From Pyrinomonadaceae bacterium (GTDB taxonomy: Bacteria > Acidobacteriota > Blastocatellia > Pyrinomonadales > Pyrinomonadaceae), in NCBI GenBank assembly GCA_963748605.1, contig CAVVJS010000011.1:17963-81962 (forward strand): a stretch of 64,000 nt of DNA. Reading direction: 5' to 3'. The notes below the pieces were generated by a model, which was given only the letters and a program-made list of their open reading frames with translations, did not search any database and had not been told where the DNA came from. Position 1 is the first letter of the stretch; each line of letters starts with the position of its first letter. The position numbers and the translations under genes were made by a program. Shown here piece after piece: positions 31,464 through 54,083 of the stretch.

Positions 31464-31716
31464 GAGAGACGAGAAGATGGGGAGAAGGTGCGACTCCCCT
31501 TTCCCCACTTCCCTGGACCGTCAAGGAAGTGGCAAAGGAAACGGTCAAGATATTTCGTGTTGTTTAGTGGGAATTCGTGGATCGTCTTTACTGCTAGATA
31601 AAATTACGATCCACGAAGCGACACGAAGCAGCACGAAACATGTTGGACTGGACCGTCAAAAGTCTCGCGAAGGAACCGAACAAGTCTGCCCCTTTTCTAC
31701 TTTTTCTCCTTTCTCC
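31464..31716. repeat. Nested inverted repeats (outer GAGAAG/CTTTTC arms, inner TTTCGTG/CACGAAA arms)
   Basis: Outer arms: gagagacgagaagatggggagaaggtg faces ccccttttctactttttctcctttctcc. Inner arms: tttcgtgttgtttagtgggaattcgtggatcgt at 31553-31585 faces acgatccacgaagcgacacgaagcagcacgaaa at 31606-31638. Confidence 0.82.
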
Positions 31717-32629
31717 TGCTATCCTCATCGCGGCAGTGCAAGACGCAAATGAAAAACTAAAAGAGCGAGTGCGCGCCTTTTGGCAGGAGCATCCTTGCGG
31801 GACAAAGTTCGCGGATGCCGAGCCCGGCTCGCCGAAGTTCTATGAACTGGTTGAGGCGCACCGTTACAGCAAAGAGTGGCACATTCCCGCCGCTGCGGAT
31901 TTTGCTTCTGCGCGCGGCTTGAAGGTTTTGGAGATCGGTTGCGGCCTCGGCACCGACGGAGCGCAATTTGCCAAAGCTGGAGCTGACTACACGGGAGTCG
32001 ATCTCACTGACGCGGCAGTCACGCTCGCGCGCAAACGCTTCGAAGTATCCGAACTGGAAGGTAAGTTCCAAACTGCAGATGCGGAAAACCTCCAGTTCGA
32101 AAGTGAGAGTTTTGACCTCGTCTATTCCCACGGCGTTCTACATCACACTCCTGATCCACCGCAGGCAGTAAAAGAAATTTGGCGTGTACTGAGACCCGGA
32201 GGTCGAGCGGTGGTGATGCTTTATCATCGCGACTCGTATAATTATCGCGTAAACATTTCTTTGCTTCGTCGCGCCGGCGCGCGACTGCTGAAATCCGAAT
32301 CAGGAATCCGCCTGGTGCAACGGCTCACGGGTGAACCGCTGGAGTCGTTGCGTGAACACGCCAAATTGCTTCAGGAGGGAGAGGAAAATTATCTTCAGCC
32401 TGATGAGTTTCTGAACCAGAATACGGATGGCGCTGGGAATCCGCTTGCCCGCGTTTACTCGCGAGCAGAAGCGCGCGAACTATTCAAAGCCTTTTCCACC
32501 GTCAGACTCCAAACGTTTTTCTTGAACAAGCGTTGGCTACCGTTGGTGGGAAAGATGTTGTCGCGCGAGACCGAGTCGCGACTCGCGGAGCGCTGGGGGT
32601 GGCATCTATGGATATACGCCACTAAATAA
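31640..32629 (+). CDS. Class I SAM-dependent methyltransferase
   Basis: Motif [13 protein letters not shown], plus [12 protein letters not shown] and RPGGRAVV. The ATG at 31640 lies inside the nested repeat. In-frame GTG 31736 ([12 protein letters not shown]) is an alternative start. Confidence 0.85.
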
Positions 32630-32632
32630 AAC

Positions 32633-32696
32633 GGCCTTGGGTTTTTGGCCTTTGGCTTTTGCCCAAAACCAAAAACCGAAAACCAAAAACCAAAAT
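32633..32696. repeat. Back-to-back inverted TTTGGCC/CCAAAA arms with no cargo
   Basis: ccttgggtttttggcctttggcttttg | cccaaaaccaaaaaccgaaaaccaaaaaccaaaa. It fills the whole spacer between the two genes. Confidence 0.85.
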
Positions 32697-33701
32697 ATGC
32701 GCAACATTCTAATAACTGGCGGCGCGGGCTTCATCGGATCGCATCTCGTTGATCGGTTACTTGACGAAGGCGATTGGCGCGTCACCGTAGTTGATGATTT
32801 CAACGATTTCTATTCGCCTGCGATCAAGCGCCGCAATGTCTTGCCACAAAAAGATAATCCCTCATACAAACTTTTCACCGCAGACATTCGTCATAAGGCA
32901 GCTTTGGAGCACATATTTGCAGAGCAAAAGTTTGATTGCCTTGTTCACTTAGCGGCTCGCGCGGGTGTGCGACCGTCGCTTAGTGAGCCGCAGCTGTACG
33001 TTGAAACTAACATCAACGGTACGATGAATTTGCTTGAACTGGCGCAGCAGCACGGCGTGCGGCAGTTTGTATTTGGATCATCGTCGTCTGTCTATGGCGT
33101 AAATGAAAAGGTGCCGTTCAGCGAAACTGATCCCATCTTCAATCCCATTTCACCATACGCCGCGACCAAAGCCGCCGGTGAACTTCTTTGTCACACCTAT
33201 TCACATCTCTACGGCCTACGTTGCGTCTGCCTGCGGTTCTTTACGGTGTATGGTGCCCGGCAACGCCCTGATTTAGCGATTCACAAATTTGCGCAATTGA
33301 TTAGTCAGGGGAAGCCGATCCCGGTGTTTGGTGACGGCACAACGCGACGCGACTACACCTACATCGATGACATTATTCAGGGGGTGCGCGCGGCTCTCGA
33401 TTACGTTGGCGATGACGCGAAGAGCGATTATGAGGTCATTAACCTGGGTGAGTCGCGGACAGTTGAATTGCGCGAATTGCTCGCCTTGCTCGAGAAAGAG
33501 CTGGGCATGAAAGCAGTGATTGAAAGGCAACCCCTGCAGCCTGGTGATGTGCCCCAAACCTTCGCCGACATCAGTAAGGCCCGTCGCCTCCTTAACTACA
33601 ATCCCCAAACTCAGATTGAGGACGGGATTCGATTGTTTGTTAAATGGTTCCGTGAACAGGAGTCAGAGGCAGCGTCACTCGGTACAGTACGGGAGCGGTA
33701 G
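32697..33701 (+). CDS. NAD-dependent epimerase/dehydratase (UDP-glucuronate 4-epimerase-like)
   Basis: ATG 32697 gives [18 protein letters not shown] (Rossmann GxxGxxG). Catalytic YAATK. The last 7 codons and the stop (LGTVRER*) are supplied by the left REP of the RAYT unit. Confidence 0.92.
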
Positions 33702-34359
33702 CGACCGCATTCAACCATGGTCGCCTTAACCGATCGAGCTATAATCGCCAGGTTCTAAGACCTCACGTTCAAGGACAACTCCATGACTCCATCTCACCGG
33801 GAGTTCGACCCTGGCCATATTCCTCTTGCTTTCATGATTACACTGCGGGCCCACGGCACTTGGCTGCATGGCGATCGGCGTGGCTCGGTGAATCGGTTTC
33901 ACAACGAATACGGAACTCCAAGACTTCCTCCTAATCCCTTGCGACGACACTACGAGCGGCAACTCCCTAAGACGCCCCCCTGTAAAACTCACCGCGAAAC
34001 GAAGAGCAGCCGTTTATCGGGGCATTCGCGAGACATGTGCTATTCGCAACTGGCGTTTGTGGGCGCTTAACGTTCGTGGCAATCACGTACATTCAGTTGT
34101 GTCAGCTAACTGCCACTCAAAGAAAGTTCGAGCGCTTTGAAGGCCAACCCCACCCGCACGATGAGAGAGTCAGGATGCTGGGAAAGTGAGAAAAGTCCCT
34201 GGAGTGGTGGGGGCAGTCGAAAGTTCATTTGGAACGAACAGCAACTAACCGAAGCGATCGACTATGTGCTGCATGAACAGGGCGACGAACTACCGTAGTC
34301 AGGGCTTAGGCGACCACCCGTTGAATGCGGTCGCTACCGCTCCCGTACTGTACCGAGTG
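33677..34359. mobile_element. RAYT unit: IS200-like HUH transposase gene flanked by inverted REP-A copies
   Basis: cactcggtacagtacgggagcggtagcgaccgcattcaac at 33677-33716 faces gttgaatgcggtcgctaccgctcccgtactgtaccgagtg at 34320-34359. Confidence 0.82.
33783..34298 (+). pseudogene. REP-associated tyrosine transposase (RAYT / IS200-like Y1 HUH), two frameshifts
   Basis: Segment 1 (frame of 33783): FMITLRAHGTWLHGDRRGSVNRF. Segment 2 (+1 after the C6 run at 33975-33980): LTAKRRAAVYRGIRETCAIRNWRLWALNVRGNHVHSVVSA, which carries the HUH motif. Segment 3 (back to frame 1 near 34134): LKANPTRTMRESG..SRKFIWNEQQLTEAIDYVLHEQGDELP*, which carries a candidate catalytic Tyr. Confidence 0.8.
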
Positions 34360-34531
34360 GCCGTCCGTGTTAAAGGTTGTTCGGCGCATCTTGGCGGCTT
34401 GGCGGTAATTAGCTAAGAGTCCTGACCACTGTTTTCCACGCAAAAGACCTCAGTTCTCTCCTACTCGCCGATTTGTTCTACAATGCCTTGTCCTGCCCGG
34501 AAGACCTTCCGGCGAGCTTGAGTCACCACAT

Positions 34532-35314
34532 ATGTCCAGCAATGCAAACATCATCGGAGATCCACTGCCTCGAGAAATGCAGCCGCATACTTACCCGATC
34601 ATGTATGCGGTCGAGGGGAGTCATTGGTGGTTTGCCGGCCGGCGTCGCATTCTCAAAAGTTTCCTCGCTCGTATTGCCGCAAATCTGAACAAGACCAACC
34701 TGGAGATCCTCGATATCGGTTGTGGCACTGGGGCGAATCTGGAAATGCTGGCTGAGTTTGGCAAAGCCCAGGGCGTTGACGTTTCGTCAGAGGCACTCGC
34801 GTTTTGCCGGGCCCGTGGTCTTGATCAGGTGCACCAAGGCGAAGCGGAACAATTACCTTTCGCGGATCGCAGCTTTGACCTCGTGACTGCTCTCGATGTG
34901 GTGGAACATCTGGACGACGATCTCAAGGGACTGAAAGAGATGCGGCGAGTCTTATCTCCTCAAGGACGAGCTTTAATTTTTGTCCCCGCGTTCATGTTTC
35001 TTTGGGGTGTTCAGGATGACATTAGTAACCATCGTCGCCGGTACACGCTTGCAACACTTCAGACTGTTTTGCAGGATGCCGGATTTAAAATAGAGCGCGC
35101 GACTTACGCCAACATCACTTTCTTTTTACCTATCTTGCTGGGCCGTTTGCTGATGCGCGCCACCGGTTTTCGTCCGGCTTCAGAAAACAATTTAACGATT
35201 GGTGCTTTGAACGGAGCGCTCGGACGGTTATTCGGCTCCGAGTCCGCGCTGCTTCGCTATCTGAACCTTCCTTTTGGCGTTTCCATCGTTTGTGTTGCCC
35301 GGCGAATCGACTAG
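34532..35314 (+). CDS. Class I SAM-dependent methyltransferase
   Basis: 260 aa. Motif I ILDIGCGTGANL, plus FDLVTALDVVEHL and SPQGRALIFVP. Confidence 0.88.
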   Translation: MSSNANIIGDPLPREMQPHTYPIMYAVEGSHWWFAGRRRILKSFLARIAANLNKTNLEILDIGCGTGANLEMLAEFGKAQGVDVSSEALAFCRARGLDQVHQGEAEQLPFADRSFDLVTALDVVEHLDDDLKGLKEMRRVLSPQGRALIFVPAFMFLWGVQDDISNHRRRYTLATLQTVLQDAGFKIERATYANITFFLPILLGRLLMRATGFRPASENNLTIGALNGALGRLFGSESALLRYLNLPFGVSIVCVARRID

Positions 35315-35333
35315 CTCAAACCGATCTCACGTA

Positions 35334-36353
35334 ATGAAACTTTACGAGGACAATTTGCTAGCTCATGCGACGTCGCTAATTCGTGACAGCGATGCGCCCG
35401 AGATTTCCGTTTTTCTGCCGGTCTACAACGAGGAACCAAATCTGCCGCCGCTCCATGCGAAACTCGTAGAAGCGCTCAGCAAACTCGGGCGCACCGCGGA
35501 AATCGTTTTTGTCGATGATGGTTCATCTGACAACAGCTTGAAAGTGTTGCGCGAAATTGCAGCGCAGGATGATCGCGTCCGGGTTGTGGCCCTGAAACGC
35601 AACTATGGGCAAACAGCGGCAATGGCCGCTGGGATCGACGCCGCCCGCGGTCAAGTGCTGATACCAATGGATGCGGACCTTCAGAATGATCCGGCGGATA
35701 TCGTGCGCCTGCTGGAGAAGCTGGATGAAGGGTACGACGTCGTTTCTGGATGGCGAAAGAACCGTCAGGATAAATTGGTGACGCGGAAGATCCCTTCAAT
35801 GATTGCGAATCGTCTGATTTCCTGGATCGGCGGCGTTCCCCTTCACGATTACGGATGTTCGCTGAAGGCTTACCGCCGCGAATCTTTGCAGGACGTGAGA
35901 CTCTACGGAGAAATGCATCGTTTTATTCCGATCTACGCCTCGTGGGCCGGAGCACGTGTTGCTGAGATTCCCGTGGAGCACCATGCCCGCACGATGGGTA
36001 AATCAAAGTATGGCCTCTCGCGAACGATTAAGGTCGTTTTCGATCTAATGACGATCAAGTTCATGGCTTCATATCAAACCAAACCAATCTATGTATTCGG
36101 TTCGTTTGGCATGCTCGCTTTTTTGATCTCGATTCTTGCGGGGCTGTATGCAGTGTTTCTGAAACTCTTTCACAAGGCAGACTTCGTGCAAACTCCGCTG
36201 CCGATCCTGGCGATTGTCATGTTTGCCGTGGGAATCCAGTTTCTGTTGATGGGGCTGCTGGCTGAGATGTTGGTGCGGACTTACCACGAGTCACAGTCGA
36301 AGGCGATTTATGCGGTCCGCGAGCGGGTAGGATTTGAAGATCGTAAATCGTGA
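35334..36353 (+). CDS. Family 2 glycosyltransferase (polyprenyl-phosphate sugar transferase type, GtrB/ArnC-like, 2 C-terminal TM)
   Basis: ATG 35334 (MKLYED). ISVFLPVYNEEPNL, VFVDDGSSDNS and DADLQNDP (DxD). C-terminal TM pair. The stop codon lies in the left arm of cassette 2. Confidence 0.9.
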   Translation: MKLYEDNLLAHATSLIRDSDAPEISVFLPVYNEEPNLPPLHAKLVEALSKLGRTAEIVFVDDGSSDNSLKVLREIAAQDDRVRVVALKRNYGQTAAMAAGIDAARGQVLIPMDADLQNDPADIVRLLEKLDEGYDVVSGWRKNRQDKLVTRKIPSMIANRLISWIGGVPLHDYGCSLKAYRRESLQDVRLYGEMHRFIPIYASWAGARVAEIPVEHHARTMGKSKYGLSRTIKVVFDLMTIKFMASYQTKPIYVFGSFGMLAFLISILAGLYAVFLKLFHKADFVQTPLPILAIVMFAVGIQFLLMGLLAEMLVRTYHESQSKAIYAVRERVGFEDRKS

Positions 36354-36886
36354 ATCGGGAATTCGTAAATCGTGAATCGTTGAATCGTGAAAAAATGTGT
36401 TTTTGAAGATTATCCTCACAATAAAGCTTGAAAGGAGCTAACCCATGAGACCTCACCAAAAGCTAGACCTGTGGAAAAAATCCATTGACCTTGCAGTCTC
36501 GATCTATCGCCAGACTGAAGCTTTCCCAAAAGAAGAGAAATTCGGCTTAACGCAGCAATTACGTCGGGCCGCTGTTTCGGTTGCTTCCAATGTCGCTGAA
36601 GGTGCCGCCCGCTCGTCTTCCAATGAGTTTAGAAAGTTTTTATCTTATTCCCAAGGTTCTGCGAGTGAAATCAGCACACAGTTAATGATAGCAAGTCGAC
36701 TCAATTACTTGAGCCAAAATGACCTCGACCGATTGGATAGGGATCTTGACGATATCGGGAGAATGATTACAGGGCTGTCTAAGAGTCTCAATCGTGGCGA
36801 AAATATCTGCGAGCGATTCCCGATTTCCGATTAACGATTCACCAAATACGATTCCCGATTCACGATTTACGATTCACGATTCACGA
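36339..36886. repeat. Near-perfect inverted CGTGAATCG-type arms bracketing a four-helix-bundle gene (cassette 2)
   Basis: The left arm 36339-36390 contains tcgtaaatcgtgaatcgggaattcg. The reverse complement of the right arm 36813-36886 contains tcgtaaatcgtgaatcgggaatcg. This is a ~25-nt match with one indel inside longer arrays of the same flavour. Confidence 0.88.
36445..36834 (+). CDS. Four-helix-bundle protein (TIGR02436 / 23S rRNA intervening-sequence protein family)
   Basis: 129 aa. FGLTQQLRRAAVSVASNVAEG and SYSQGSASEISTQL motifs. AAGGAG Shine-Dalgarno at 36432-36437, 7 nt before the ATG. Confidence 0.9.
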   Translation: MRPHQKLDLWKKSIDLAVSIYRQTEAFPKEEKFGLTQQLRRAAVSVASNVAEGAARSSSNEFRKFLSYSQGSASEISTQLMIASRLNYLSQNDLDRLDRDLDDIGRMITGLSKSLNRGENICERFPISD

Positions 36887-36888
36887 CT

Positions 36889-38817
36889 ATGTGTGGAATA
36901 ACCGGCTGGGCTCATCTTGACTCGCGCACGCCGCCTCCTGAGGGCGCGAAGCAATTGCTTCACTCGATGTGCGAACGAATGACGCACCGTGGTCCGGACT
37001 CAGAAGGATTACTCGTTTCCACCGGCGTGGCCCTGGGGATGCGCCGCCTCGCCATCATCGATCTAGTTACCGGAGAACAGCCTGCCTTCAATGAGGATCA
37101 CAGTGTTGCCGTCATCCTGAACGGCGAGATCTACAACTACCGGGAGCTACGCTCAACTCTTGAGAGCCGCGGTCACTCGTTCCGCAGCGCGTCGGACACC
37201 GAGGTTTTGCCGCATCTTTATGAAGAGTATGGCCAAGACATGGTGCAGCATCTCAACGGGATGTTTGCCTTCGCGCTTTGGGATGAGCCGAACCAGCGTC
37301 TTTTGATTGCCCGTGATCGCTTTGGTGAGAAACCTCTTTATTGGGGAATCTTTGATAAGCAACTTCTGTTCGCTTCGGAACCAAAAGTCTTGCTGGCGCA
37401 TCCGAGTGTCCGGCCGGCGTTGAACTTGAATGCGCTGCGACAGTATCTCTCGTTTGATTACATACCTGCGCCGCTTTCTATTTACGAGGGCGTCAACAAA
37501 CTTCCCGCCGCACACACGCTGACATTTGAAGATGGTCGCGCCAGGGTCGAGCCCTACTGGTGTTTGAGTTATCAGACAAAGCAACCGGTGCCGGATGAAG
37601 CGGAAGCCGCGGCCCGGCTGCAGGAGTTGCTAGCCGACTCCGTTCGCATGCGTCTTGTTTCAGATGTGCCCTTAGGTGTGTTGCTTTCTGGCGGAGTTGA
37701 TTCATCGGCCGTTACCGCACTTGCGGTGCGCGCTTCATCGGAACCAGTCAAAACGTTTTCCATCTCTTTTTCAGAGTCGTCTTTTGATGAATCGTCTTAC
37801 GCGAGGCGTGTCGCCAAGTACCTGGGAACGGATCATCATGAAGAAAGGCTGAGTTCAAATCTCGCGGCAAATTTGATCGGCGACATCGGTTCCTGGATGG
37901 ACGAGCCTTTCAGTGACCCTTCGTTAGTTCCTACCTATCTGCTTTCGCGTTTCACCAGGAAGCATGTGACGGTGGCGCTGGGTGGTGATGGCGGCGACGA
38001 ACTGTTTGCCGGTTACCAGATGTACCGGGGGCACGACTGGGCCGCGATCTATACGAAGCTTCCAGATTTGTTGAAGCGCGGTTTGATCGAGCCGCTGGTT
38101 CGCTTACTACCGGTCAAAACCAAAAATCTTTCTCTTGATTACAAGGCCCTGCGGTTTGTCACAGGCGCAAAATATGACCTCGTAACGCGGCATCACGTTT
38201 GGTTTGGTTCATTCACACCCGAAGAGCAGGAACAGTTGCTGACGCCAGAAGCACTGGCTGCCAGCGATGGCGACGTCTATCGTGACGCGCGCCGCATGCT
38301 TACGGAATGTGATGCGGAGAGCTTGATCGAACAGATGCAGAACCTGGATACGCGGCTCTATTTGGCAGAGGACATTTTGACTAAGGTTGATCGCGCCAGC
38401 ATGGCGGTATCTTTGGAAGTGCGCGCGCCGTTTCTCGACCCTCAGGTGGCTGAGTTTGCCGCGTCGCTACCCCTTAATTACAAGTTGCGAGGCGGCAAGA
38501 GTAAATACATTTTGAAACGAGCAGTTGCCGATCTACTGCCGCCCTTCGTCACCCGTCGAAGTAAGAAAGGGTTTGGCGTGCCTGTAGCTGAATGGCTAAA
38601 GGGAAAATTAAAACCCCTCGCGCGCGATCTGCTTTCACCGGAGCGAGTGCGGCGAGCTGGAGTTTTTAATCCGGAGTACGTCACACGCCTGCAGGACGAA
38701 CATGAACGCGGCGTGGCCAATCACCGAAAATTGCTTTGGACACTCTTGATGTTTGAGCTCTGGCACGAGAGCTTTGTAGAAACTCCACGGCGGATCGAGA
38801 CGGTGGAAGCTAATTGA
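36889..38817 (+). CDS. asnB: Asparagine synthase (glutamine-hydrolysing) family amidotransferase
   Basis: 642 aa. N-terminal MCGI (Cys2 nucleophile of the Ntn glutaminase domain). PP-loop LSGGVDSS in the synthetase domain. Confidence 0.94.
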   Translation: MCGITGWAHLDSRTPPPEGAKQLLHSMCERMTHRGPDSEGLLVSTGVALGMRRLAIIDLVTGEQPAFNEDHSVAVILNGEIYNYRELRSTLESRGHSFRSASDTEVLPHLYEEYGQDMVQHLNGMFAFALWDEPNQRLLIARDRFGEKPLYWGIFDKQLLFASEPKVLLAHPSVRPALNLNALRQYLSFDYIPAPLSIYEGVNKLPAAHTLTFEDGRARVEPYWCLSYQTKQPVPDEAEAAARLQELLADSVRMRLVSDVPLGVLLSGGVDSSAVTALAVRASSEPVKTFSISFSESSFDESSYARRVAKYLGTDHHEERLSSNLAANLIGDIGSWMDEPFSDPSLVPTYLLSRFTRKHVTVALGGDGGDELFAGYQMYRGHDWAAIYTKLPDLLKRGLIEPLVRLLPVKTKNLSLDYKALRFVTGAKYDLVTRHHVWFGSFTPEEQEQLLTPEALAASDGDVYRDARRMLTECDAESLIEQMQNLDTRLYLAEDILTKVDRASMAVSLEVRAPFLDPQVAEFAASLPLNYKLRGGKSKYILKRAVADLLPPFVTRRSKKGFGVPVAEWLKGKLKPLARDLLSPERVRRAGVFNPEYVTRLQDEHERGVANHRKLLWTLLMFELWHESFVETPRRIETVEAN

Positions 38818-38957
38818 GACATCGGGTCATTGAGTCGTCGGGTCATTGAGTCATCGGGTCATTGAGTCATTGCGTGAACCGTTTGTCGAATAATTCCCTC
38901 CAACAGTTAGTCAATGATTCAATGATTCAATGATGCAATGACCCGATGACTCAATAA
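38815..38957. repeat. Inverted GGGTCATTGAGTCAT/ATGACTCAATGACCC arms, ~38-bp core
   Basis: The left arm (gacatcgggtcattgagtcgtcgggtcattgagtcatcgggtcattgagtcattg) includes the asnB stop. The right arm (tcaatgattcaatgattcaatgatgcaatgacccgatgactcaataa) ends 5 nt before the next ATG. Confidence 0.88.
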
Positions 38958-38961
38958 TCCT

Positions 38962-40158
38962 ATGGCCGATTCCGGTTTTGCACAGGCGTTTGATGAGCTA
39001 TTCGCGTGGTGTCGCCAACATAACTTCGCCGGTCACGATCCCTTCGACGCACTGAACAGCAAGGTCTTTCAAGCAACTCCCTTCCGCAACTCAGCTAAAG
39101 CTCGTCTGATCTGGACGCAAGTGGTGAAACGTTCGCCGTTGAACTTGCGCCGGCTCGCCCTGATTCAGCCGGAACAGAACGCAAAAGGCATCGCCTTATT
39201 TGCGCTCGCTGCCCTGGCAAACTATCGACGCACTGAATCAAAGACAGCTGAGCTGGAAGCGCGCGACCTCTTAGAACAATTGATCTCGTTGAGGATCGAG
39301 ACGAGCTCGGGCGTCGCCTGGGGCTACAACTTCGATTGGCAATCCCGCGTCTTTTTCGCCCCTCGCGGTACGCCGACAATCGTTCCCACGGCGTTTGCGG
39401 CGCGGGCCCTCATCGAAGCCAGTGATGCATTTAACGAGAATGCGTACCTGGATCTCGCGCGACGTGTTTGTGATTTTGTGATGCACGAACTCCCACGCAC
39501 TGTGGAAACCCAAACGGAGATTTGTTTCAGCTATACGCCTCGCGACACAACGCGAATCTTTAACGCCAGTTTGTTGGCCGCTGAAGTTCTTGCACTCGTA
39601 GGCGCACGCGACGGTAACGCAGATTACTGCAGTGCCGCTGTCAAGGCGGCGCGGTACGTGGTCAATCAACAACGCGAAGACGGTTCCTGGTTCTATGGTG
39701 CAGCTACAAATCAAGACTGGATCGACAACTTCCACACCGCCTACCTGCTTAGTTCACTAAAGAGAATCATGAATTCGTGTGAGGCGGCCCAGACCGACGA
39801 ATTCCAAACCGCGTTGCAGCGCGGTTATAGGTTCTGGAGAGAAAGCTTCTTTCTTGCAGATGGATGGCCGAAATACTACCATGACGCGCTCCATCCGGTT
39901 GATACGCACGCAGCCGCAGCGGCCATAGTTTCCCTTCTGGATTTAATCGAATTGGATCGAGACGCGCTGTCATTGGCCGAACAAATCGCGGACTGGTCAA
40001 TACGCAACCTGCGCGATAAGCAAGGATTTTTTTATTACCAGCGACGCCGGTTCTACACCGTTCGCACACCCTTCATGCGCTGGACTCAGGCTTGGATGCT
40101 GTACGCTCTGGCGCGTTTGTTGGAAGAACAACAGCGAGATTCCAAGCGAAAGGAATAG
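38962..40158 (+). CDS. Hypothetical protein of the polysaccharide locus (398 aa, helical-repeat/toroid-like)
   Basis: Clean ORF whose stop abuts the next gene's start at 40159. No motif I can name. Confidence 0.78.
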   Translation: MADSGFAQAFDELFAWCRQHNFAGHDPFDALNSKVFQATPFRNSAKARLIWTQVVKRSPLNLRRLALIQPEQNAKGIALFALAALANYRRTESKTAELEARDLLEQLISLRIETSSGVAWGYNFDWQSRVFFAPRGTPTIVPTAFAARALIEASDAFNENAYLDLARRVCDFVMHELPRTVETQTEICFSYTPRDTTRIFNASLLAAEVLALVGARDGNADYCSAAVKAARYVVNQQREDGSWFYGAATNQDWIDNFHTAYLLSSLKRIMNSCEAAQTDEFQTALQRGYRFWRESFFLADGWPKYYHDALHPVDTHAAAAAIVSLLDLIELDRDALSLAEQIADWSIRNLRDKQGFFYYQRRRFYTVRTPFMRWTQAWMLYALARLLEEQQRDSKRKE

Positions 40159-40638
40159 ATGCCGGTTGCCGCGGACGTAAAACTTGGGCCAGGCGTCAAA
40201 ATTTTTCAGCCTGAACTCGTCAATCTCTACGGTTGCACGATCGGTACCGAAACGAAAATCGGAGCGTTCGTTGAGATTCAGAAGAATGCGACGGTAGGAT
40301 CTCGCTGCAAGATTTCTTCGCACAGTTTTATTTGCGAAGGTGTAACGATAGACGACGAGGTATTTGTCGGTCATGGGGTGATGTTTATCAACGACCCCTA
40401 TCCGCGCGCTGTAAATCAAGATGGATCGCTGCAAACGGAAAGTGATTGGGAAGTGGTGACCACTCGGGTGAAGCAGCGGGCTGCTATCGGCAGCAATGCC
40501 ACGATTGCGGCTGGAGTGGTGATTGGCGAAGCGGCCCTGGTAGGCGCGGGTGCCGTTGTCACACGGGATGTACCTGACTATGCGATTGTGGCTGGTGTGC
40601 CGGCCAGGGTGATCGGCGACGTTCGCGAGAAGAAATAG
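40159..40638 (+). CDS. Hexapeptide-repeat (left-handed beta-helix) sugar N-acetyltransferase, WbpD-like
   Basis: 159 aa. Hexapeptide periodicity (IGTETKIGAFVEIQKNATVGSRCKISSHSFICEGVTIDDEVFVGHGVMFIND; IGSNATIAAGVVIGEAALVGAGAVV). Confidence 0.88.
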   Translation: MPVAADVKLGPGVKIFQPELVNLYGCTIGTETKIGAFVEIQKNATVGSRCKISSHSFICEGVTIDDEVFVGHGVMFINDPYPRAVNQDGSLQTESDWEVVTTRVKQRAAIGSNATIAAGVVIGEAALVGAGAVVTRDVPDYAIVAGVPARVIGDVREKK

Positions 40639-40655
40639 GCTGCAGTAGCCGGTGC

Positions 40656-40813
40656 GAGAACCAAAACCATTTTCCATTTCTCATTTCTCATTGGTTTGGT
40701 GAGTTCAAGTTTAAATTGCAACACTCGGCAATAACCTGTTACGAACCACGAAATGACACGAACGTGCACGAGCAAAATGACAAATGAGAAATGATATATG
40801 GAAAATGGTTCTT
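40656..40813. repeat. Inverted CATTTCTCATT/AATGAGAAATG arms with a ~79-bp core holding one CACGAAA-type arm
   Basis: gagaaccaaaaccattttccatttctcatttctcattgg faces aaaatgacaaatgagaaatgatatatggaaaatggttctt. The core contains ttacgaaccacgaaatgacacgaacgtgcacgag. Confidence 0.85.
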
Positions 40814-40845
40814 ATCTCGGATTGCTCACTACTGACCTCTAAACA

Positions 40846-41856
40846 ATGCTCAAGCTCGGTGTAATCGGTTATGGCTACTGGGGACCGAATCTGGTGCGCA
40901 ATTTTATGGAAGCACCCGGTTCGACAGTCGTTGCTGTGTGCGACCTCCGTCCCGAACGTCTTAAGCAACTGAAAATCCGCTATCCTTCAATCAAGATTTG
41001 CGCCGACCCCCAACAACTCTTCGACGATCCAGAAATTGAAGCGATTGCCATCGTCACTCCCGTTACATCTCACTTCGAACTTGCACTTGCGGCACTGCAC
41101 GCGGGCAAACATGTGCTGGTGGAAAAACCGCTCGCTGCAAATTCTGAGCAAGCCCTGCAATTGATCGAAGAAGCAGCTGCGCGCAAACGTATCCTGATGG
41201 TGGATCACACATTTGTTTATACCGGCGCGGTACGTAAGATTCGCGAACTGATTACCGAAAACGAGCTGGGCGAAATCTATTATTACGACGCCGTTCGAGT
41301 GAACCTCGGACTGTTCCAACACGACGTAAATGTGATCTGGGATCTGGCGATACACGATCTTTCGATTATGGATTACGTGCTTCCCTCGCGCGCTGTGGCG
41401 GTTTCCGCCACGGGTATCAGCAACCTTCCCGGTCAACCGGAAAACGTTGCTTACATCACGCTTTTTTTCGCAAATCCCCAAATTGCGCATGTGCATGTAA
41501 ATTGGCTTACTCCTGTGAAAGTCCGTCACACGTTGATTGGCGGCAGCGACAAGATGATTCTTTACGACGATCTCGAGCCGAGCGAGAAAGTGAAGATTTA
41601 CGATAAGGGCGTTCTCGTGTCGCAGAGTCCGGAAGATGTTTATGAGATGTTGGTAAGTTATCGCTCGGGCGACATGTGGGCCCCGCGACTGGACACAACT
41701 GAAGCTCTGTACACGGAAGCGCTGCATTTCATCGACTGCGTCAAACATGACAAGCAGCCGATAACTGACGGTCAGGCAGGACTGCGACTTGTGCGTATCG
41801 TAGAGGCGGCTGAGCGATCGTTGCGCGCTCGCGGTGAGCTGGTAGAGATTCTGTAG
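40846..41856 (+). CDS. Gfo/Idh/MocA family oxidoreductase, WbpB-like
   Basis: 336 aa. N-terminal Rossmann LKLGVIGYGYWGPNL and EKPLA motif. Confidence 0.9.
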   Translation: MLKLGVIGYGYWGPNLVRNFMEAPGSTVVAVCDLRPERLKQLKIRYPSIKICADPQQLFDDPEIEAIAIVTPVTSHFELALAALHAGKHVLVEKPLAANSEQALQLIEEAAARKRILMVDHTFVYTGAVRKIRELITENELGEIYYYDAVRVNLGLFQHDVNVIWDLAIHDLSIMDYVLPSRAVAVSATGISNLPGQPENVAYITLFFANPQIAHVHVNWLTPVKVRHTLIGGSDKMILYDDLEPSEKVKIYDKGVLVSQSPEDVYEMLVSYRSGDMWAPRLDTTEALYTEALHFIDCVKHDKQPITDGQAGLRLVRIVEAAERSLRARGELVEIL

Positions 41857-41865
41857 CCGAAAATT

Positions 41866-42993
41866 ATGATTCCTTATCTAGATCTTAGAGCTCAGTATCA
41901 GACGATCAAGGACGAGATCGATGAGGCCATTAGAAGTGTCGTCGAGAGTTCTCAGTTTGTGCTGGGTGAGCAGGTTGAGGCCTTTGAGTCTGACTTCGCG
42001 AAGTTTTGTGGAACTCAGCACGCGCTGGGTGTGAACTCAGGAACGAGTGCGTTACATCTCGCATTGCTGGCGGCCGGAGTGAAAGCCGGCGATGAAGTGA
42101 TTACGGTTAGCGACACATTCGTCGCAACCGCCGCTGCAATCCGCTACACGGGCGCGAAACCTGTTTTTGTTGAGATTGATCCGCGCTCCTGCACAATGGA
42201 TCCGCAAAGAATTGCCGCCGCAATCACGCCGCGCACGAAGGTAGTTATGCCCGTGCATCTATACGGTGGTTGTGCGGACATGGATCCGATTCGCGACATC
42301 GCGCGACAACACAATCTAATTGTCATTGAAGACGCGGCGCAGGCCCACGGGGCCGAGTATCAGGGTGCGCGGGCGGGCAGCCTGGGCGACATTGCCTGCT
42401 TCAGTTTCTATCCGGGAAAAAACCTGGGCGCGTTTGGAGAAGCCGGTGCGGTGGTAACGGACAACGATCAATTTGCGAAGTCGATCCGGCGCTTGCGAGA
42501 TCACGGGCAAAGTCAGAAGTACTACCACGACGAGGTCGGTTACAACTATCGCATGGAAGGAATTCAGGGCGCCGTTTTGCGTGTGAAGCTGCGGCATCTG
42601 GATGATTGGACGGCGGCGCGGCGGTCGCATGCCGCTCACTACAGCGACGCGCTTGCAGGATCTGGAGTACGACTGCTCGAGCCGTTAGCACAGGGCCGTT
42701 CCGCTTGGCACATTTTTCCGGTGTTTACGCCGCGGCGTGACGAGTTGCTCGAACATCTCGAGACTCGAGGTATCAACAGCCGCATTCACTATCCAATTCC
42801 AGTTCATCTCCAGCGTGGTTATGCTGATCTAGGGTATCAGGCAGGAGATTTTCCCCTCACGGAGCAGGCCTGCAACGAAGTCTTAACGCTACCGATATAC
42901 GCAGAACTTCCGCACGAACACTTGATGGAGGTGGTAGCAGCCATTCACGAGTTTTTTTCCGCGGATTCAGAAGCTATTCGCGCTCACTCCTAG
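41866..42993 (+). CDS. DegT/DnrJ/EryC1/StrS family PLP-dependent sugar aminotransferase, WbpE-like
   Basis: 375 aa. MIPYLDLRAQYQ start, EDAAQAHG, and FSFYPGKNLGAFGEAG (PLP lysine region). Confidence 0.94.
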   Translation: MIPYLDLRAQYQTIKDEIDEAIRSVVESSQFVLGEQVEAFESDFAKFCGTQHALGVNSGTSALHLALLAAGVKAGDEVITVSDTFVATAAAIRYTGAKPVFVEIDPRSCTMDPQRIAAAITPRTKVVMPVHLYGGCADMDPIRDIARQHNLIVIEDAAQAHGAEYQGARAGSLGDIACFSFYPGKNLGAFGEAGAVVTDNDQFAKSIRRLRDHGQSQKYYHDEVGYNYRMEGIQGAVLRVKLRHLDDWTAARRSHAAHYSDALAGSGVRLLEPLAQGRSAWHIFPVFTPRRDELLEHLETRGINSRIHYPIPVHLQRGYADLGYQAGDFPLTEQACNEVLTLPIYAELPHEHLMEVVAAIHEFFSADSEAIRAHS

Positions 42994-43007
42994 ATTTTGC
43001 ACAAACG

Positions 43008-44024
43008 ATGCGCATCTGGATCGATCTTGCTAATTCTCCGCACGTCCCTTTCTTTCGCGCCCTCATTGATGACTTTAAAAGCCGCGGTCATGAAATTGAA
43101 ATAACAGCGCGGGAGTTTGCCGAAACAGTGCCGCTCGCTCGAGCAGCGGGGCTGGCGCCAGTTGTTATCGGCGCTCACGGCGGTAGAGAACTCAAGGGCA
43201 AAGCGGGAAACCTTTTTCAAAGAGCGTGGGCTTTGCGCGCCTGGGCGAGCGCCAGAGCTTTCGAGTTAGCGGTTAGTCATAATTCCTATTCACAGATTCT
43301 GGCGGCGCGCGGCTTGGGATTACGCACGGTGACGTTGATGGACTATGAGCATCAACCAGCGAACCACCTCGCTTTTCGGCTCGCTTCAACTGTGATCGTT
43401 CCCCGAGCGTTTCCCGCTGAACAGCTCAGCCGTTATGGAACTAACCCAGCGAAGGTGAGGCGCTACGAGGGCATAAAAGAAGATGTGTATTTGGCGGATT
43501 TCCAAAACGACCCTGCTTTTGCAGGAAAGCTCCGGAATCTCGGCGTCAGGCCTGAAAATATTCTGGTAGTGGTCAGACCGCCCGCTCGTGACGCCTTGTA
43601 TCATCGGTTCGATAATGAGCTCTTCGAGTCATTACTAAAGCGCTTGAGCGACGACCAGCGAGTAACGACGGTCTTGCTGCCACGCAACGAGACACAGCGC
43701 CAACTCTATGAGGCGCGTACAGACGCAAGAATGATTATTCCTGCCGAGCCGCTGGATGGAGCGAATCTGATAGCGGCGAGTGATCTGGTGGTTAGCGCCG
43801 GCGGTACGATGAATCGCGAAGCTGCGGCCTTGGGCGTCCCTGCTGCTACGATCTATGCTGGCAGTTGGGCTGCCATTGATGAAGAACTGGTTCGTGAAGG
43901 GCGACTGACCCGCCTCAGCATGCCGGCAGATATTGAACACTTGTCTTTGCAGAAGAAGGCGAGAACAGTAAACAGAGATAAGGCTTCGGTTAAGAAAGAA
44001 GTGGCGGATTTGATACTTGGGTAA
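43008..44024 (+). CDS. DUF354 domain protein (GT-B / UDP-GlcNAc 2-epimerase-like fold)
   Basis: 338 aa. MRIWIDLANSPHVPFFRALIDDFKSRGHEIEITAR is typical of DUF354 N-termini. Confidence 0.8.
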   Translation: MRIWIDLANSPHVPFFRALIDDFKSRGHEIEITAREFAETVPLARAAGLAPVVIGAHGGRELKGKAGNLFQRAWALRAWASARAFELAVSHNSYSQILAARGLGLRTVTLMDYEHQPANHLAFRLASTVIVPRAFPAEQLSRYGTNPAKVRRYEGIKEDVYLADFQNDPAFAGKLRNLGVRPENILVVVRPPARDALYHRFDNELFESLLKRLSDDQRVTTVLLPRNETQRQLYEARTDARMIIPAEPLDGANLIAASDLVVSAGGTMNREAAALGVPAATIYAGSWAAIDEELVREGRLTRLSMPADIEHLSLQKKARTVNRDKASVKKEVADLILG

Positions 44025-44059
44025 CGAGGCCGAAAGTGGCAGTAACTTTAACGGCTCTG

Positions 44060-44200
44060 CCGTCTTCCGTGCGGTAAGCCTTTGGCTTACCGGTTCGATC
44101 TTCGTGCGAATCGCGAGGCTGAGCCTCGCGATCAAATATTAGACGGATCGGTGAGGCAAGCCTCAGCGCACGGAGGGCGGCTAAGCCGCCGCTTCCGATT
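44060..44200. repeat. Palindromic 'H' element (CCGTGCGGTRAGGC arms around the TCGCGAGGCTSAGCCTCGCGA hairpin)
   Basis: ccgtgcggtaagcctttggcttaccgg at 44067-44093. tcgcgaggctgagcctcgcga at 44111-44131. cggtgaggcaagcctcagcgcacgg at 44149-44173. The same modules occur at 54555-54640. Confidence 0.82.
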
Positions 44201-44255
44201 AACTTGAATGAGATCCGATAAGCCGCCGCTTCCGACTAACTTGAATGAGATCCGA
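44182..44255 (+). repeat. 37-bp tandem duplication that includes the start codon of the priming transferase gene
   Basis: taagccgccgcttccgaYtaacttgaatgagatccga occurs at 44182-44218 and 44219-44255 (1 mismatch). ATGs are at 44208 and 44245. Confidence 0.9.
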
Positions 44256-45801
44256 GACTATTAACATTCAAACAATTGCTCCGAGCACTGTGCGTGTCGC
44301 CGGGCGTGCGCCGCGTTGGGTGATTCCCGCAGTAAAGCTGGCGATGATCGTTGTAGACGTGTTCATCGCTATCGGCGCCTTTGCCGGCGCGTTCTACCTG
44401 CGCGAGTCAGCTCAGCTTTGGCAAATTGCTGCCGATGGCAGTTTCAGTTGGAGTGCTCGCTTTGCTCCGTACGCCGCGCTCTTGCCGTTCGTCGTCATCA
44501 CTCGGCTATTGCTGATCCGTTACTACGACCTTTATCGGCTGCGCGGCGAGTTCTCGTTTGTTGATGATGCGGTGCGTCTTTTTAAAGCGGCCGCTATTGG
44601 TTCGTTGTTAATTGTCGCGGCTGCTTTTCTGTATCGCGGTGGTTTTGAGTATCGGGCCTTCTCGTATGCGCGCTCAGTCTTCCTACTCGATTTTCTTCTC
44701 GCTCTAGCCGGCATCGTGCTTGTCAGGCTGCTGGTGCGCGGCGGACAAACCGTGGTGCGCAGCCGGGGAATCAATCTCATACCGACTCTCGTTGTCGGCC
44801 GCGGAGTTGAAGCCTCACTTTGCATTCAGGAGATGCGCGAACGGCCCGCGCTCGGTTATCGCGTGATTGGCGTTGTCGACAACCAGCTGAGCGCAGGCAG
44901 CGGCGCAAGACAATTCCAAGATGTCCCCGTAGTTGGAACTCTCAAAGAGTTACCCGAGGTCATTCGCGATTCGGGTGCTAATGAAGTGATCATCGCTGAT
45001 CCAAATGTTGATGGGGACACACTTTTTGAGGTGATGATGCGCTGCGGCAGACGGCGCGGAGTAGAGTTTCGCATCGCGCCCAACCTCTTTAACTGCCTGC
45101 CGCGTAAGACAGAGATTGATCAGATTGGCGCGCTGCCGATGATCCGTCTCTTCCGTGAACCGCTTTCGAATTCAGCGCGCCTGCTAAAGCGCACCTCAGA
45201 CATCGCCATCGCCGCTGTCGCCCTGATCCTGGCCGCGCCGCTGTGGCTGCTGATTGCTCTATTAATCAAATTGGATTCGCCAGGCCCGGTGTTCTACCTG
45301 CAGGAAAGAGTCGGAATGGATGGCCGGATGTTTCTCTGTTACAAATTCCGCACGATGCATCCTGGTGCTGATAGCAATGTCCATCGTGAGTACCAAAGAC
45401 AGTTCATTGCCGGGAGCGCCGAGGCGAATCTCGGTGACGGCGACCAACCGGTCTACAAGTTTCGCAGCGATGCTCGCATCACACGCGTGGGACGCTGGTT
45501 GAGACGCGCAAGTCTCGACGAGGTGCCGCAACTCTTCAACGTGTTGCGTGGTGACATGAGCGTTGTCGGTCCGCGGCCGCCGATCCCTTATGAGGTGGAG
45601 GACTATGAACTTTGGCACCGTAAGCGGCTGGATATGAAACCGGGCCTCACCGGCCTTTGGCAGGTTTCTGGGCGCAATCGCATCCCATTCGAAGAAATGG
45701 TGAAGCTGGATCTTTACTACATCGAGAACTGGTCGCTGTTACTGGATTTGAAAATCATCATGCGCACCGCGCTGGTCATAATTCGCGGCGATGGTTATTA
45801 G
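44245..45801 (+). CDS. Polyprenyl-phosphate sugar phosphotransferase (WbaP/exopolysaccharide priming enzyme type)
   Basis: 518 aa. N-terminal TM bundle, central Rossmann-like domain, C-terminal bacterial sugar transferase domain (KRTSDIAIAAVALIL; DELPQLFNVLRGDMSVVGPRP). Confidence 0.93.
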   Translation: MRSETINIQTIAPSTVRVAGRAPRWVIPAVKLAMIVVDVFIAIGAFAGAFYLRESAQLWQIAADGSFSWSARFAPYAALLPFVVITRLLLIRYYDLYRLRGEFSFVDDAVRLFKAAAIGSLLIVAAAFLYRGGFEYRAFSYARSVFLLDFLLALAGIVLVRLLVRGGQTVVRSRGINLIPTLVVGRGVEASLCIQEMRERPALGYRVIGVVDNQLSAGSGARQFQDVPVVGTLKELPEVIRDSGANEVIIADPNVDGDTLFEVMMRCGRRRGVEFRIAPNLFNCLPRKTEIDQIGALPMIRLFREPLSNSARLLKRTSDIAIAAVALILAAPLWLLIALLIKLDSPGPVFYLQERVGMDGRMFLCYKFRTMHPGADSNVHREYQRQFIAGSAEANLGDGDQPVYKFRSDARITRVGRWLRRASLDEVPQLFNVLRGDMSVVGPRPPIPYEVEDYELWHRKRLDMKPGLTGLWQVSGRNRIPFEEMVKLDLYYIENWSLLLDLKIIMRTALVIIRGDGY

Positions 45802-45828
45802 CTGCCCTTTTGCAAGAGGAGGTAAGTC

Positions 45829-46230
45829 ATGTCACACGATAATGTCGAATTAGTCCGCGGTCTGTACGATTCGTTCGGCAGAGGCGATGTTCCCTCAGTC
45901 CTGGGGAAGATGCATCAGGCAATCGAGTGGAACGAAGCAGAGAACTTCATTTACGCAGATCGTAATCCTTATGTGGGACCACAGGCTGTGCTTGAAGGGG
46001 TCTTTATGCGGCTGGGAACGGAGTGGGAAGGTTTTTCCGTGACTCCGGAAGAGTGGCTGGACGCCGGTAACCGAGTGGTTGTTTTAGGTACCTACAAAGG
46101 AACACATCGTGGAACTGCCAAACGAGTCCGCGCGCAATTTGCACACGTGTGGAGTTTGAAAGAAGGCAGAGTCGCGCGGTTTCAACAATACACCGATACT
46201 AAGCAGTTTGCGGAAGTCGTCGCCATCTAG
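45829..46230 (+). CDS. SnoaL-like / NTF2-fold protein
   Basis: 133 aa. NVELVRGLYDSFGRGD start and C-terminal VWSLKEGRVARFQQYTDT. AGGAGG Shine-Dalgarno upstream. Confidence 0.82.
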   Translation: MSHDNVELVRGLYDSFGRGDVPSVLGKMHQAIEWNEAENFIYADRNPYVGPQAVLEGVFMRLGTEWEGFSVTPEEWLDAGNRVVVLGTYKGTHRGTAKRVRAQFAHVWSLKEGRVARFQQYTDTKQFAEVVAI

Positions 46231-46235
46231 CAAAT

Positions 46236-46361
46236 CGTTTTGGTCTTTGGTTTTTGGCCTTTGGCTTCTGTTGCAAGCGGCCTTTTTCTCGAACCATCAA
46301 GGCGACGGAAACAGGCACCAGAGCCAAACCCAAAACCCAAAGACCAAAGGCCCAAAACCCC
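46236..46361. repeat. Inverted TTTGGCC/CCAAAA arms (same flavour as 32633-32696), 48-bp core
   Basis: cgttttggtctttggtttttggcctttggcttctg faces cagagccaaacccaaaacccaaagaccaaaggcccaaaacccc. Confidence 0.85.
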
Positions 46362-46367
46362 AGACTT

Positions 46368-53996: not shown

Positions 53997-54083
53997 TTGA
54001 CGATTGCCGATTGCCGATTGCCGATTGCCAATTGCTGATTCGCTATCAAACGCGATTTCAGATTTACGATTTACTATTCACGA
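53996..54083. repeat. Solo short-period arms of two flavours (GCCGATT, then CGATTTACGATT) with no inverted partner nearby
   Basis: tgattgacgattgccgattgccgattgccgattgccaattgctgattcg ... cagatttacgatttactattcacga. Confidence 0.8.

Follow-up and report, generated by a model that had tools for sequence, protein, structure and literature searches.

Inverted heptanucleotide arrays between the cistrons of an acidobacterial polysaccharide operon as probable arms of intervening-sequence-type hairpin cassettes

What are the arrays of short tandem repeats that fill the spacers of a polysaccharide operon in a Pyrinomonadaceae bacterium? The operon lies on the plus strand at ~31.7 to 45.8 kb of a stretch of 64,000 nucleotides (the window; GenBank assembly GCA_963748605.1, contig CAVVJS010000011.1, forward-strand positions 17,963 to 81,962; G+C content 53.7%) and, according to Pfam, encodes methyltransferases, an epimerase, GT2, AsnB, a hexapeptide transferase, GFO/IDH/MocA, DegT, DUF354, and bacterial sugar transferase proteins. 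An initial annotation had described six spacers of the operon region as pairs of inverted arms, each built of an imperfect short repeat, and the sequence bears this out for all six. With moderate confidence, we interpret the arrays as the two arms of hairpin cassettes of the intervening sequence (IVS) type known from ribosomal RNA (rRNA), together with gene-less derivatives of such cassettes, lodged in an mRNA operon. Taken together, the structures are most aptly described as cassettes of the IVS type plus gene-less hairpins that derive from them or resemble them.

The first line of evidence comes from the two spacers of the window in which the arms enclose a gene (both on the plus strand, as are the gene-less hairpins of the operon region and the solo arms described below). 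The gene at 36.3–36.9 kb, which the initial annotation had left without identity, belongs to family PF05635. This cassette 1 starts with a 5′ arm of ~7 imperfect copies of ATCGTGA/ATCGTAA (36340–36391), continues with an open reading frame (ORF) for a 129-aa four-helix-bundle protein (36445–36834; PF05635, 23S_rRNA_IVP; TIGR02436), and ends with a 3′ arm of ~10 copies of CGATTCA/CGATTTA (36814–36886), which pairs with the 5′ arm in the predicted fold. The protein matches the Pfam family with an E-value of 9e-39, TIGR02436 with 5e-38, and PDB entry 2GSC, its closest solved structure (Xanthomonas XCC0516), with 5e-32. The spacer is filled from stop to start codon, as had been claimed: the stop codon of the upstream GT2 gene (36351–36353) lies inside the 5′ arm, and the 3′ arm ends 3 nt before the ATG of AsnB (asparagine-synthase-like, 36889–38817; 92% identical to the AsnB of a Pyrinomonadaceae metagenome-assembled genome). 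Cassette 2 has a 5′ arm of GGGGAACA x5.6 (15134–15178), an ORF for a PF05635 protein of 131 aa (15210–15605; Pfam E-value 1e-31), which is 38% identical to that of cassette 1 in local BLAST, and a 3′ arm of TTCCCCTT x3.8 (15651–15680), the flavor of which, i.e., its repeat unit, is retained both by two orthologues (L164 and L165) and by homologues from cyanobacteria. Both ORFs are preceded by the Shine-Dalgarno sequence AAAGGAG, located 7 nt upstream in cassette 1. In RNA folds of the whole cassettes, the minimum-energy and the centroid structures both pair the arms into a terminal stem around the ORF (z −4.0 and −3.3; z-scores here and below compare RNA folding energy with that of dinucleotide shuffles).

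Three features of a 23S rRNA IVS are present in these cassettes, namely a PF05635 protein, a stem enclosing its ORF, and heptads that vary in copy number. A fourth, insertion in helix 25 or 45 of 23S rRNA, is absent from both, which are flanked by protein-coding genes, and no rRNA was detected in the window. Neither is a diversity-generating retroelement found next to them: the neighbors of cassette 1 are GT2 and AsnB, and those of the orthologous site of cassette 2 are FTCD and DUF58. The likeness of the cassette protein to Avd amounts to an E-value of 1.6e-8 with Pfam bAvd and to 34.5 bits with NCBIfam DivGenRetAVD, the cut-off of which is 80 bits. Readings of the arrays as CRISPR or integron attC are ruled out by their anatomy, i.e., by 7-nt units without spacers and by inverted arms flanking an ORF.

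The second line of evidence is the recurrence of this build around PF05635 genes in other genomes. A single query with a PF05635/TIGR02436 protein gave more than 3,000 relatives. Using an alignment of six PF05635 proteins as the query, we collected 80 metagenome loci (source taxa not assigned), 75 of which were testable; for each, the best inverted repeat between the 200-nt flanks was scored against controls displaced by 800 nt, with their 95th percentile as the threshold. The repeat exceeded this threshold in 73 of the 75 loci, with a median score of 37 vs 16. Period-7 arms were found upstream in 56/72 and downstream in 61/73 of these cassettes, each locus having its own unit, and in 49 of 58 cases the PF05635 gene and its upstream neighbor were co-directional. 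The two window cassettes have in common a CCTC...GGAG element that masks the Shine-Dalgarno sequence; it is not general, being present in 2/75 loci. Clear complementary arms were also present in four of six cultured isolates, the isolates adding four further phyla, namely in those of Riemerella (Bacteroidota), Gemmatirosa (Gemmatimonadota), Picosynechococcus, and Azospirillum. The Azospirillum lipoferum 4B copy (plasmid AZO_p2, L168, NC_016586.1 13986–15094), an unannotated PF05635 ORF with GAGGACG/GATGACA arms, is a true 23S rRNA IVS, because its flanks are 23S rRNA (Rfam LSU, 504 bits). The Picosynechococcus sp. PCC 7003 copy (plasmid, L171, NZ_CP016476.1 126182–127290) has GGAGATA-type arms and lies between cas10 and cmr3 of a type III-B operon. 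A “CRISPR association” of the 23S rRNA IVP domain has been reported (Altae-Tran 2023), and insertions such as that between cas10 and cmr3 may explain it. The host transcription units of cassettes elsewhere include chemotaxis, type III CRISPR, tRNA, and 23S rRNA operons. The L152 cassette (187–906) is flanked by two tRNA genes of the same strand; that of L156 lies within a tRNA cluster on the opposite strand, an exception to the rule of sense orientation. Homologues from viral contigs with 39–49% identity have heptad arms, while distant ones with 24–28% identity have none; the latter are taken to be putatively Avd-like and to serve as an internal negative control. In the literature searched, we found no prior description of heptad arms around non-rRNA PF05635 genes, nor any published account of this general architecture.

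Could the arrays nevertheless be neutral low-complexity DNA, produced by local slippage, whose pairing and placement reflect only the tolerance of spacers? In many bacteria, indeed, no long simple repeats are as common as heptanucleotides (Mrazek 2007, as summarized in PMC4679880), copy number varies freely, and whole clades lack the hairpins. TRF (period 5–12, score ≥30) detects 52 short-period arrays in the window, most commonly of periods 7 and 8, vs 4–12 (about 8) in 20 dinucleotide shuffles. Of these, 41 lie mostly outside genes, an intergenic share of the window of only 22% notwithstanding (p 6e-18, with some gene starts hand-trimmed). Gene calls were our own crude ORF calls, trimmed where the longest ORF crossed an array; the longest-ORF starts at 31640, 32637, 46254, and 30388 do so, and the likely true starts of these four genes are 31749, 32698, 46369, and ~30553. 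The arrays qualify as long simple sequence repeats, having units of 5–11 nt, occurring above chance, and being mostly non-coding. For comparison, the same operon was collected from 80 related genomes (L001–L080; 1.35 Mb together with the window), and in this set same-flavor arrays within 1.5 kb of each other form 42 inverted pairs vs 4 direct ones. Rfam covariance models match no array in the window or in 26 PF05635 loci. Neutral origin is scarcely credible to us because of this inverted pairing, the co-variation of the arms, their polarity (56:14 and 63:8, see below), and the fact that 73 of 75 genes of one family are associated with such arms.

A further regularity is arm polarity. A G-rich 5′ arm is found in 56 of 70 cassettes and a C-rich 3′ arm in 63 of 71, and the 5′ arms contain 141 AGT triplets vs 17 ACT. 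This polarity is independent of gene orientation, because the reverse complement of a palindrome keeps the G-rich arm first. Three causes are possible: a need to keep C-rich Rho loading sites from being exposed; a 3′ arm kept free of start codons as the leader of the next cistron (the ATG/GTG density in 3′ arms is 0.002 vs 0.059); or a mode of synthesis by which two opposed 3′ ends are both extended with one G-rich unit. Stop codons were rejected as the cause: stops in all frames are present in 24/70 of the 5′ arms vs 12/72 of the 3′ arms, and a third of the 5′ arms have none at all.

The third line of evidence is the co-inheritance of genes and arms. Among 53 cassettes, protein identity and arm-unit similarity are correlated (Spearman −0.185; none of 2000 permutations as extreme). 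Orthologues of cassette 2 with 80–83% identity keep GGGGAA-type arms, and so do homologues in Nostoc and Chroococcidiopsis, which are 72–73% identical and lie in unrelated operons. These cyanobacterial homologues of 15210–15605 are L161 (Nostoc sp. DSM 114167) and L163 (Chroococcidiopsis thermalis). Since arm flavor follows protein identity even across phyla, gene and arms travel together, and proteins of Acidobacteriota and Cyanobacteria that are 72–73% identical and carry similar arms point to transfer of whole cassettes between phyla.

The same observations could be read in another way, in which the arrays are putative binding sites: the four-helix-bundle protein, or another factor, would read the heptads on RNA or single-stranded DNA for regulation or maintenance, and the hairpin would be secondary. 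That the arm unit is kept in all nine gene-bearing orthologues of cassette 1, while gene-less hairpins use more than 10 different units, fits this reading, as do the tracking of protein phylogeny by arm flavor, even between phyla, and the strong G-first polarity, which suggests that one strand is read. Moreover, Avd, a homologue, acts on nucleic acid in concert with a reverse transcriptase. The closest solved structures are each deposited with five chains, and the Xanthomonas one is described as a homopentamer (PMC4990558). Co-inheritance alone, however, could make flavor follow phylogeny; polarity is strand-symmetric in a palindrome and does not mark the sense strand; and hairpins lacking the gene are maintained in genomes that have no PF05635 gene close by. 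On balance, we regard binding as the primary role of the arrays as decidedly unlikely.

What, then, is the history of the spacers? Among the 80 relatives, hairpins have been both gained and lost at syntenic sites. On a neighbor-joining tree of AsnB (a simple distance tree), one large clade has an empty GT2-to-AsnB spacer of 4–26 nt, and the other clade has hairpins; within the latter, the cassette occurs in three sub-clades interleaved with gene-less lineages. All nine gene-bearing orthologues keep CGTGAAT/CGTAAAT arms, with a copy number of ~3 to more than 9, at a protein identity of only 59–70%. The cassette has stayed in place, with the same flavor, across genomes in which AsnB is only 82–92% identical. 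Four gene-less lineages (L003, L004, L008, and L010) retain CGTGAAT remnants, and L008 also keeps a 30-residue C-terminal relic of the PF05635 gene; other gene-less lineages have short-loop hairpins with the units AGTGATG, AGTGAAG, AGTGAAA, and AGTACTG. In 23/31 loci, the dominant unit of one arm is the complement of that of the other, with the unit differing among loci. The simplest history compatible with these sequences would be one gain, repeated loss of the gene, and subsequent joint drift of the arms. Comparison of filled and empty GT2-to-AsnB spacers revealed no target-site duplication, although overlap with the stop codon prevents an exact placement of the junctions. The spacer between AsnB and the next gene is similarly variable, being occupied by ATTGAGTC in the window, by GTTYCGA in L001 and L003–L005, and by GCAGRNG in L002, and measuring only 14–28 nt in ten or so genomes.

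The initial annotation had also proposed that the arrays come in discrete flavors, which recur at distant sites by dispersal or a sequence-specific generating mechanism rather than by local slippage. Recurrence is confirmed: each listed flavor was found again, vs at most 1.1 sites expected in shuffles. TTTGGCC occurs at 32.6 and 46.2 kb, GCCGATT at 14.0 and 54.0 kb, CGTGAAT at 36.3–36.9 and 54.07 kb, GTTCCGA at 3.8 and 56.7–57.8 kb, CAAAGTA at 18.9–19.3 and 62.1 kb, CCTACTG at 23.2, 25.4–25.5, and 62.08 kb, and GGACTTT at 13.0, 17.7–17.9, and 29.7 kb. Discreteness holds in part. The repertoire is restricted, the 134 period-7 arrays having only 47 canonical units vs ~124 expected for random heptamers, a contrast inflated by the many arrays that are orthologous copies; but the units grade into one another. 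With one mismatch allowed, the 47 merge into three large networks, and at one orthologous spacer the gradation leads from CGTGAAT through AGTGAAT to AGTGATG, AGTGAAG, and AGTACTG. As to origin, dispersal is evidenced by nearest relatives that differ in flavor at the AsnB-to-next-gene spacer, by window flavors at non-orthologous sites of other genomes, and by PF05635 cassettes retaining one arm flavor in different phyla, but slippage operates too: copy number differs among orthologues, and the arms at 38.8 kb have expanded with periods of 16 and 8 nt.

Dispersal is also what would be expected if the hairpins were REPIN- or MITE-like non-autonomous mobile elements, spread in trans by a transposase, with PF05635 as a frequent cargo or as a gene that preferentially lands in hairpin loops. 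Recurrence of a few flavors at non-orthologous sites within and between genomes, different flavors at the same spacer in nearest relatives, onion-like nesting that implies insertion into hairpin loops, and a frameshifted Y1-transposase-like pseudogene with a flanking inverted repeat in the window are all in agreement with this scenario. The repeat around that pseudogene (GGGAGCGGTAGCGACCGC), however, is not built of heptads and belongs to another sequence family. In the window and the related loci, we saw neither near-identical copies nor fixed hairpin termini nor target-site duplications; same-flavor arrays share only 23–47 nt at ~85–95% identity, which is near the top of block-shuffled nulls. 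The stability of the GT2-to-AsnB cassette in place and flavor likewise speaks against this scenario, and we consider it unlikely.

The IVS-type reading would extend from the two gene-bearing cassettes to hairpins without a gene. Across the named spacers, the cargo varies in size, as had been claimed, from nothing, through 38, ~60, and ~80 nt, up to the whole 129-aa gene. A nested multi-layer hairpin at 31464–31716, between the DUF1028 and methyltransferase genes (−101.8 kcal/mol, z −6.4), has purine-rich outer GAGAAG arms that pair with TTTCTCC and an innermost CACGAA-type hairpin at ~31553–31640. The hairpin at 32633–32696, with GGCCTTT/AAAACCA arms and neither loop nor cargo (fold of 32630–32697, −21.1 kcal/mol, z −2.4), fills the spacer between a methyltransferase (MT1) and the epimerase, the MT1 stop codon ending at 32629 and the epimerase ATG standing at 32698. 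After AsnB, the hairpin at 38813–38957 (−68.1 kcal/mol, z −9.6) has a 38-nt loop, a 5′ arm with periods 16 and 8 (38813–38872; ATTGAGTCATCGGGTC), and a 3′ arm with period 8 (38911–38955). The arms of 40656–40813 (−47.0 kcal/mol, z −5.8) are TTTCTCA/AAATGAG at 40671–40692 and 40774–40807, and its loop of ~80 nt contains a solo CACGAA array. Finally, the hairpin at 46236–46362, between a SnoaL-like gene and a DUF763 gene, has TTTGGTC/GACCAAA arms (46238–46264 and 46326–46362) around a ~60-nt loop (fold of 46236–46363, −46.6 kcal/mol, z −3.9); it has a 23-nt stretch in common with 32633–32696, identical at 22 of 23 positions. In L001, the arms orthologous to window 40671–40807 surround two further inverted layers and an IS3 element. 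The latter, an IS3-family insertion sequence (orfA/orfB, L001 14142–15340), forms the center of a three-layer nested hairpin. Hairpin loops are evidently places where new DNA lands, as indicated by the nested layers at 31464–31716 and in L001.

Stable stems right after stop codons could equally be terminators, attenuators, or barriers to 3′-exonucleases that tune segments of the operon, like REP/BIME in E. coli, and their position between cistrons would fit differential mRNA stability. Yet no hairpin of the operon region is followed by a T-run, and the terminator-like sites at 30–48 kb (12 vs 22 expected) lie elsewhere, none coinciding with a hairpin in the direction of transcription; the intrinsic-terminator reading was rejected on these grounds. 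Spacer occupancy, moreover, varies between close relatives, which argues against a conserved regulatory design, and we assign such a function as the origin of the hairpins very little probability.

A number of observations weigh against the IVS-type interpretation, or limit its reach. Four of the six named spacers have no PF05635 gene, and no such gene occurs at these sites in ~70 relatives. A profile search of all six-frame peptides of the window and the 80 loci found no PF05635 ORF or relic in the window's gene-less hairpins; fragments appeared only in L008, L011, and L022. What points to kinship of the gene-less hairpins with the cassettes is their shared build and polarity, from which we infer that the four of the operon may share their lineage with the two that bear the gene. 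Matching the flavors of the window's gene-less hairpins to 86 foreign cassettes was powerless: nine of nine match within one mismatch, but so do 7.1 of nine random heptamers. Polarity is weaker in gene-less operon hairpins (101 vs 42), and the C-first hairpin at 40671–40807 and the one at 17735–17884 break the rule. Of the six isolates, two Nostoc plasmids score at control level, the flanking arrays being non-complementary in that of Nostoc PCC 7120 and the 3′ arm short in pNPUN02 of N. punctiforme. On the sense strand, G·U-compatible mismatches show no excess over A·C ones, with 272 vs 257 among 156 hairpins of the operon and 90 vs 96 among 72 cassettes, and sense and antisense folding energies do not differ. 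In addition, we know of no mechanism by which a cassette without a recombinase moves.

The lack of an excess of G·U mismatches means that selection on RNA, rather than on a DNA palindrome, cannot be claimed from sequence. Arm complementarity may be kept by a DNA-level process, e.g., template switching within the palindrome, and the null result does not exclude an RNA function. For the suggestion that the spacers have a role in polycistronic mRNA, or are tolerated by it, the outcome is accordingly mixed: tolerance gains support from whole clades in which the hairpins are absent (spacers of 4–26 nt); a processing role is plausible, because of the link to rRNA IVSs cut by RNase III (PMC4990558); an RNA-strand signature is missing.

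Under the IVS-type interpretation, the full form would be a promoter-less cassette consisting of a G-rich array of 7-nt (sometimes 8-nt) units, a Shine-Dalgarno sequence, a PF05635 gene, and a complementary C-rich array, inserted in sense orientation inside transcription units, here between the cistrons of the polysaccharide operon. On transcription, the arms would pair into a 25–50 bp stem, looping out the cargo and bringing the upstream stop codon next to the downstream start codon. The length of the stems, 33–50 bp, suffices for RNase III. As with rRNA IVSs, this enzyme would cut the stem and remove the insert from the host transcript, so that the insert would do little harm to the host. 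Arm length would change by replication slippage of the heptads while the arms stay complementary; deletion of the cargo gene would leave “empty” hairpins, which would then drift; and the loops would be favored for further insertions, giving rise to nested hairpins and to IS elements inside them. Folding in vivo, RNase III excision of the window copies, and the way in which cassettes move are presumed steps of this model.

A more far-reaching idea can be put forward only tentatively. According to it, PF05635 genes with polar inverted heptads would form one widespread, hitherto unrecognized class of promoter-less cassettes that live inside the transcripts of others, from rRNA, tRNA, and CRISPR to chemotaxis and polysaccharide operons, and move between phyla as a unit; the pentameric protein would read its own heptads and be needed to maintain or move the arms, and much of the heptanucleotide repeat content of cyanobacteria, Acidobacteriota, and other bacteria would stem from decayed copies. 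Cyanobacteria are the classic home of heptanucleotide STRR repeats; for the link to these, 50 kb of a Nostoc punctiforme plasmid contained too few heptad arrays for a comparison.

The analysis ties heptanucleotide repeats, catalogued for decades without explanation, to PF05635/TIGR02436 and to the classical rRNA intervening sequences, and it makes several questions testable: whether RNase III excises the cassettes from mRNA, whether the protein binds the heptads, and why the G-rich arm comes first. It also has consequences for annotation. Arrays extend or supply the stop codons of upstream genes and push automatic start calls into non-coding DNA; in such genomes, automatic annotation tends to over-extend N-termini into hairpin arms, and arrays or cassettes may create spurious “CRISPR associations.”

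Outside the six spacers, further arrays of the window show the same arrangement. Inverted pairs, listed without strand, are GATTGCC/CAATCGG at 13983–14242, with ~100 nt between the arrays, AATGTCC/GGACCTT at 17735–17884, and GCAGAAG/GCCTACT at 25373–25556; on the plus strand, GAGACACG/CCGCGTCC at 30292–30526 lie upstream of the DUF1028 domain and are conserved at this site in L001–L004. The solo arms noted earlier are present as well: GATTGCC x6.6 followed by CGATTTA x4.4 at 53995–54083, with no complementary partner nearby, and mixed arrays of AGTAGG and CAAAGTA flavors at 62066–62171.

Other repeats of the window are of different kinds. The frameshifted Y1/HUH transposase-like pseudogene (33783–34296, region 33690–34346) is flanked by a 26-nt inverted repeat, CGGGAGCGGTAGCGACCGCATTCAAC; its repaired translation matches Pfam Y1_Tnp (E-value 3e-4) and NCBIfam REP_Tyr_transpos (1.7e-3), both below cut-off, in a RAYT/REP-like arrangement. 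A second hairpin family, with unit AAATTAGCCACAGATTTTCGCGGATGACGCGGATAAGAA, is found at 4600–6143 and 9446–10854, with inverted copies around the genes at 4949–5365 and 9628–10653 and a 133-nt x5.4 tandem array at 5438–6143; it fills the AsnB-to-next-gene spacer in ~16 relatives. At 49298–49500, two Rfam Acido-Lenti-1 matches (47 and 46 bits) form facing arms of 59 nt with 92% complementarity and 85 nt between them; within the window, the “sRNA” motif behaves like a palindromic repeat element. The spacer between the DUF354 and sugar transferase genes (44025–44255) folds with −110 kcal/mol over 250 nt, has no heptad arrays, and terminates with a 37-nt x2 direct repeat reaching into the start of the following gene; L001 and L002 have related sequence. 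An array of 12-nt period at 49858–49931 (GTTGGTGTCGGC x6.2) lies within the minus-strand ORF 49560–50816 and is coding and unrelated to the spacer hairpins.

How do these structures compare with known systems? With Avd of diversity-generating retroelements, the cassette protein shares a homologous four-helix-bundle fold; unlike Avd, its gene has no adjacent reverse transcriptase or template/variable repeat, and its score is below cut-off. The STRR heptanucleotide repeats of cyanobacteria, reportedly described by Mazel in 1990, are likewise said to be mostly intergenic tandem heptamers. These and the long simple sequence repeats are generally treated as single direct repeats and are not known to have been described with inverted pairing, G-first polarity, or PF05635 cargo. 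Long simple sequence repeats resemble the window arrays in being mostly intergenic tandem heptamers, patchy among lineages and variable in copy number (Mrazek 2007, as summarized in PMC4679880). TAACTGA heptamers of marine Beggiatoaceae, Cyanobacteria, and Bacteroidetes (MacGregor 2015, PMC4679880) also occupy the interval from an upstream stop to a downstream start codon, often reach back into the preceding ORF, and provide stops in all frames; they differ in being one fixed heptamer, almost always direct (169 direct sets, 1 inverted), without hairpin or cargo. REP/REPIN and RAYT (Bertels and Rainey 2011, PMC3116915) are similar in their extragenic, inverted palindromic pairs, and a RAYT-like pseudogene is present in the window; but REPs have a conserved core of 20–40 nt in many near-identical copies, whereas the window arms are many-flavored tandem heptads. 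No near-identical palindromic core was found in the window and the loci, and the repeat of the RAYT-like pseudogene is not the dispersed heptads.

The closest likeness of the cassettes is to the 23S rRNA IVSs with an S23p ORF of Coxiella burnetii, Leptospira, Brucella, and Xanthomonas (PMC4990558): they have the same protein family, an ORF in the loop of a terminal stem and in sense orientation within the host transcript, and copy-variable tandem heptads in the stem region, and the true IVS of Azospirillum has the same kind of heptad arms. In the Coxiella 23S IVS, the S23p ORF lies between terminal inverted repeats that form a 28-bp stem, within which RNase III cleavage has been mapped, and the 5′ region contains two to three GACAGAT heptads, their number depending on the strain (Warrier et al. 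2016, PMC4990558). This work is the sole experimental basis for the processing step proposed for the window copies. The window cassettes differ in that their ORF, unlike that of Coxiella, has a strong Shine-Dalgarno sequence, their arms are longer, with up to ~10 units, and their host transcript is an mRNA operon instead of helix 45 or 25 of 23S rRNA.

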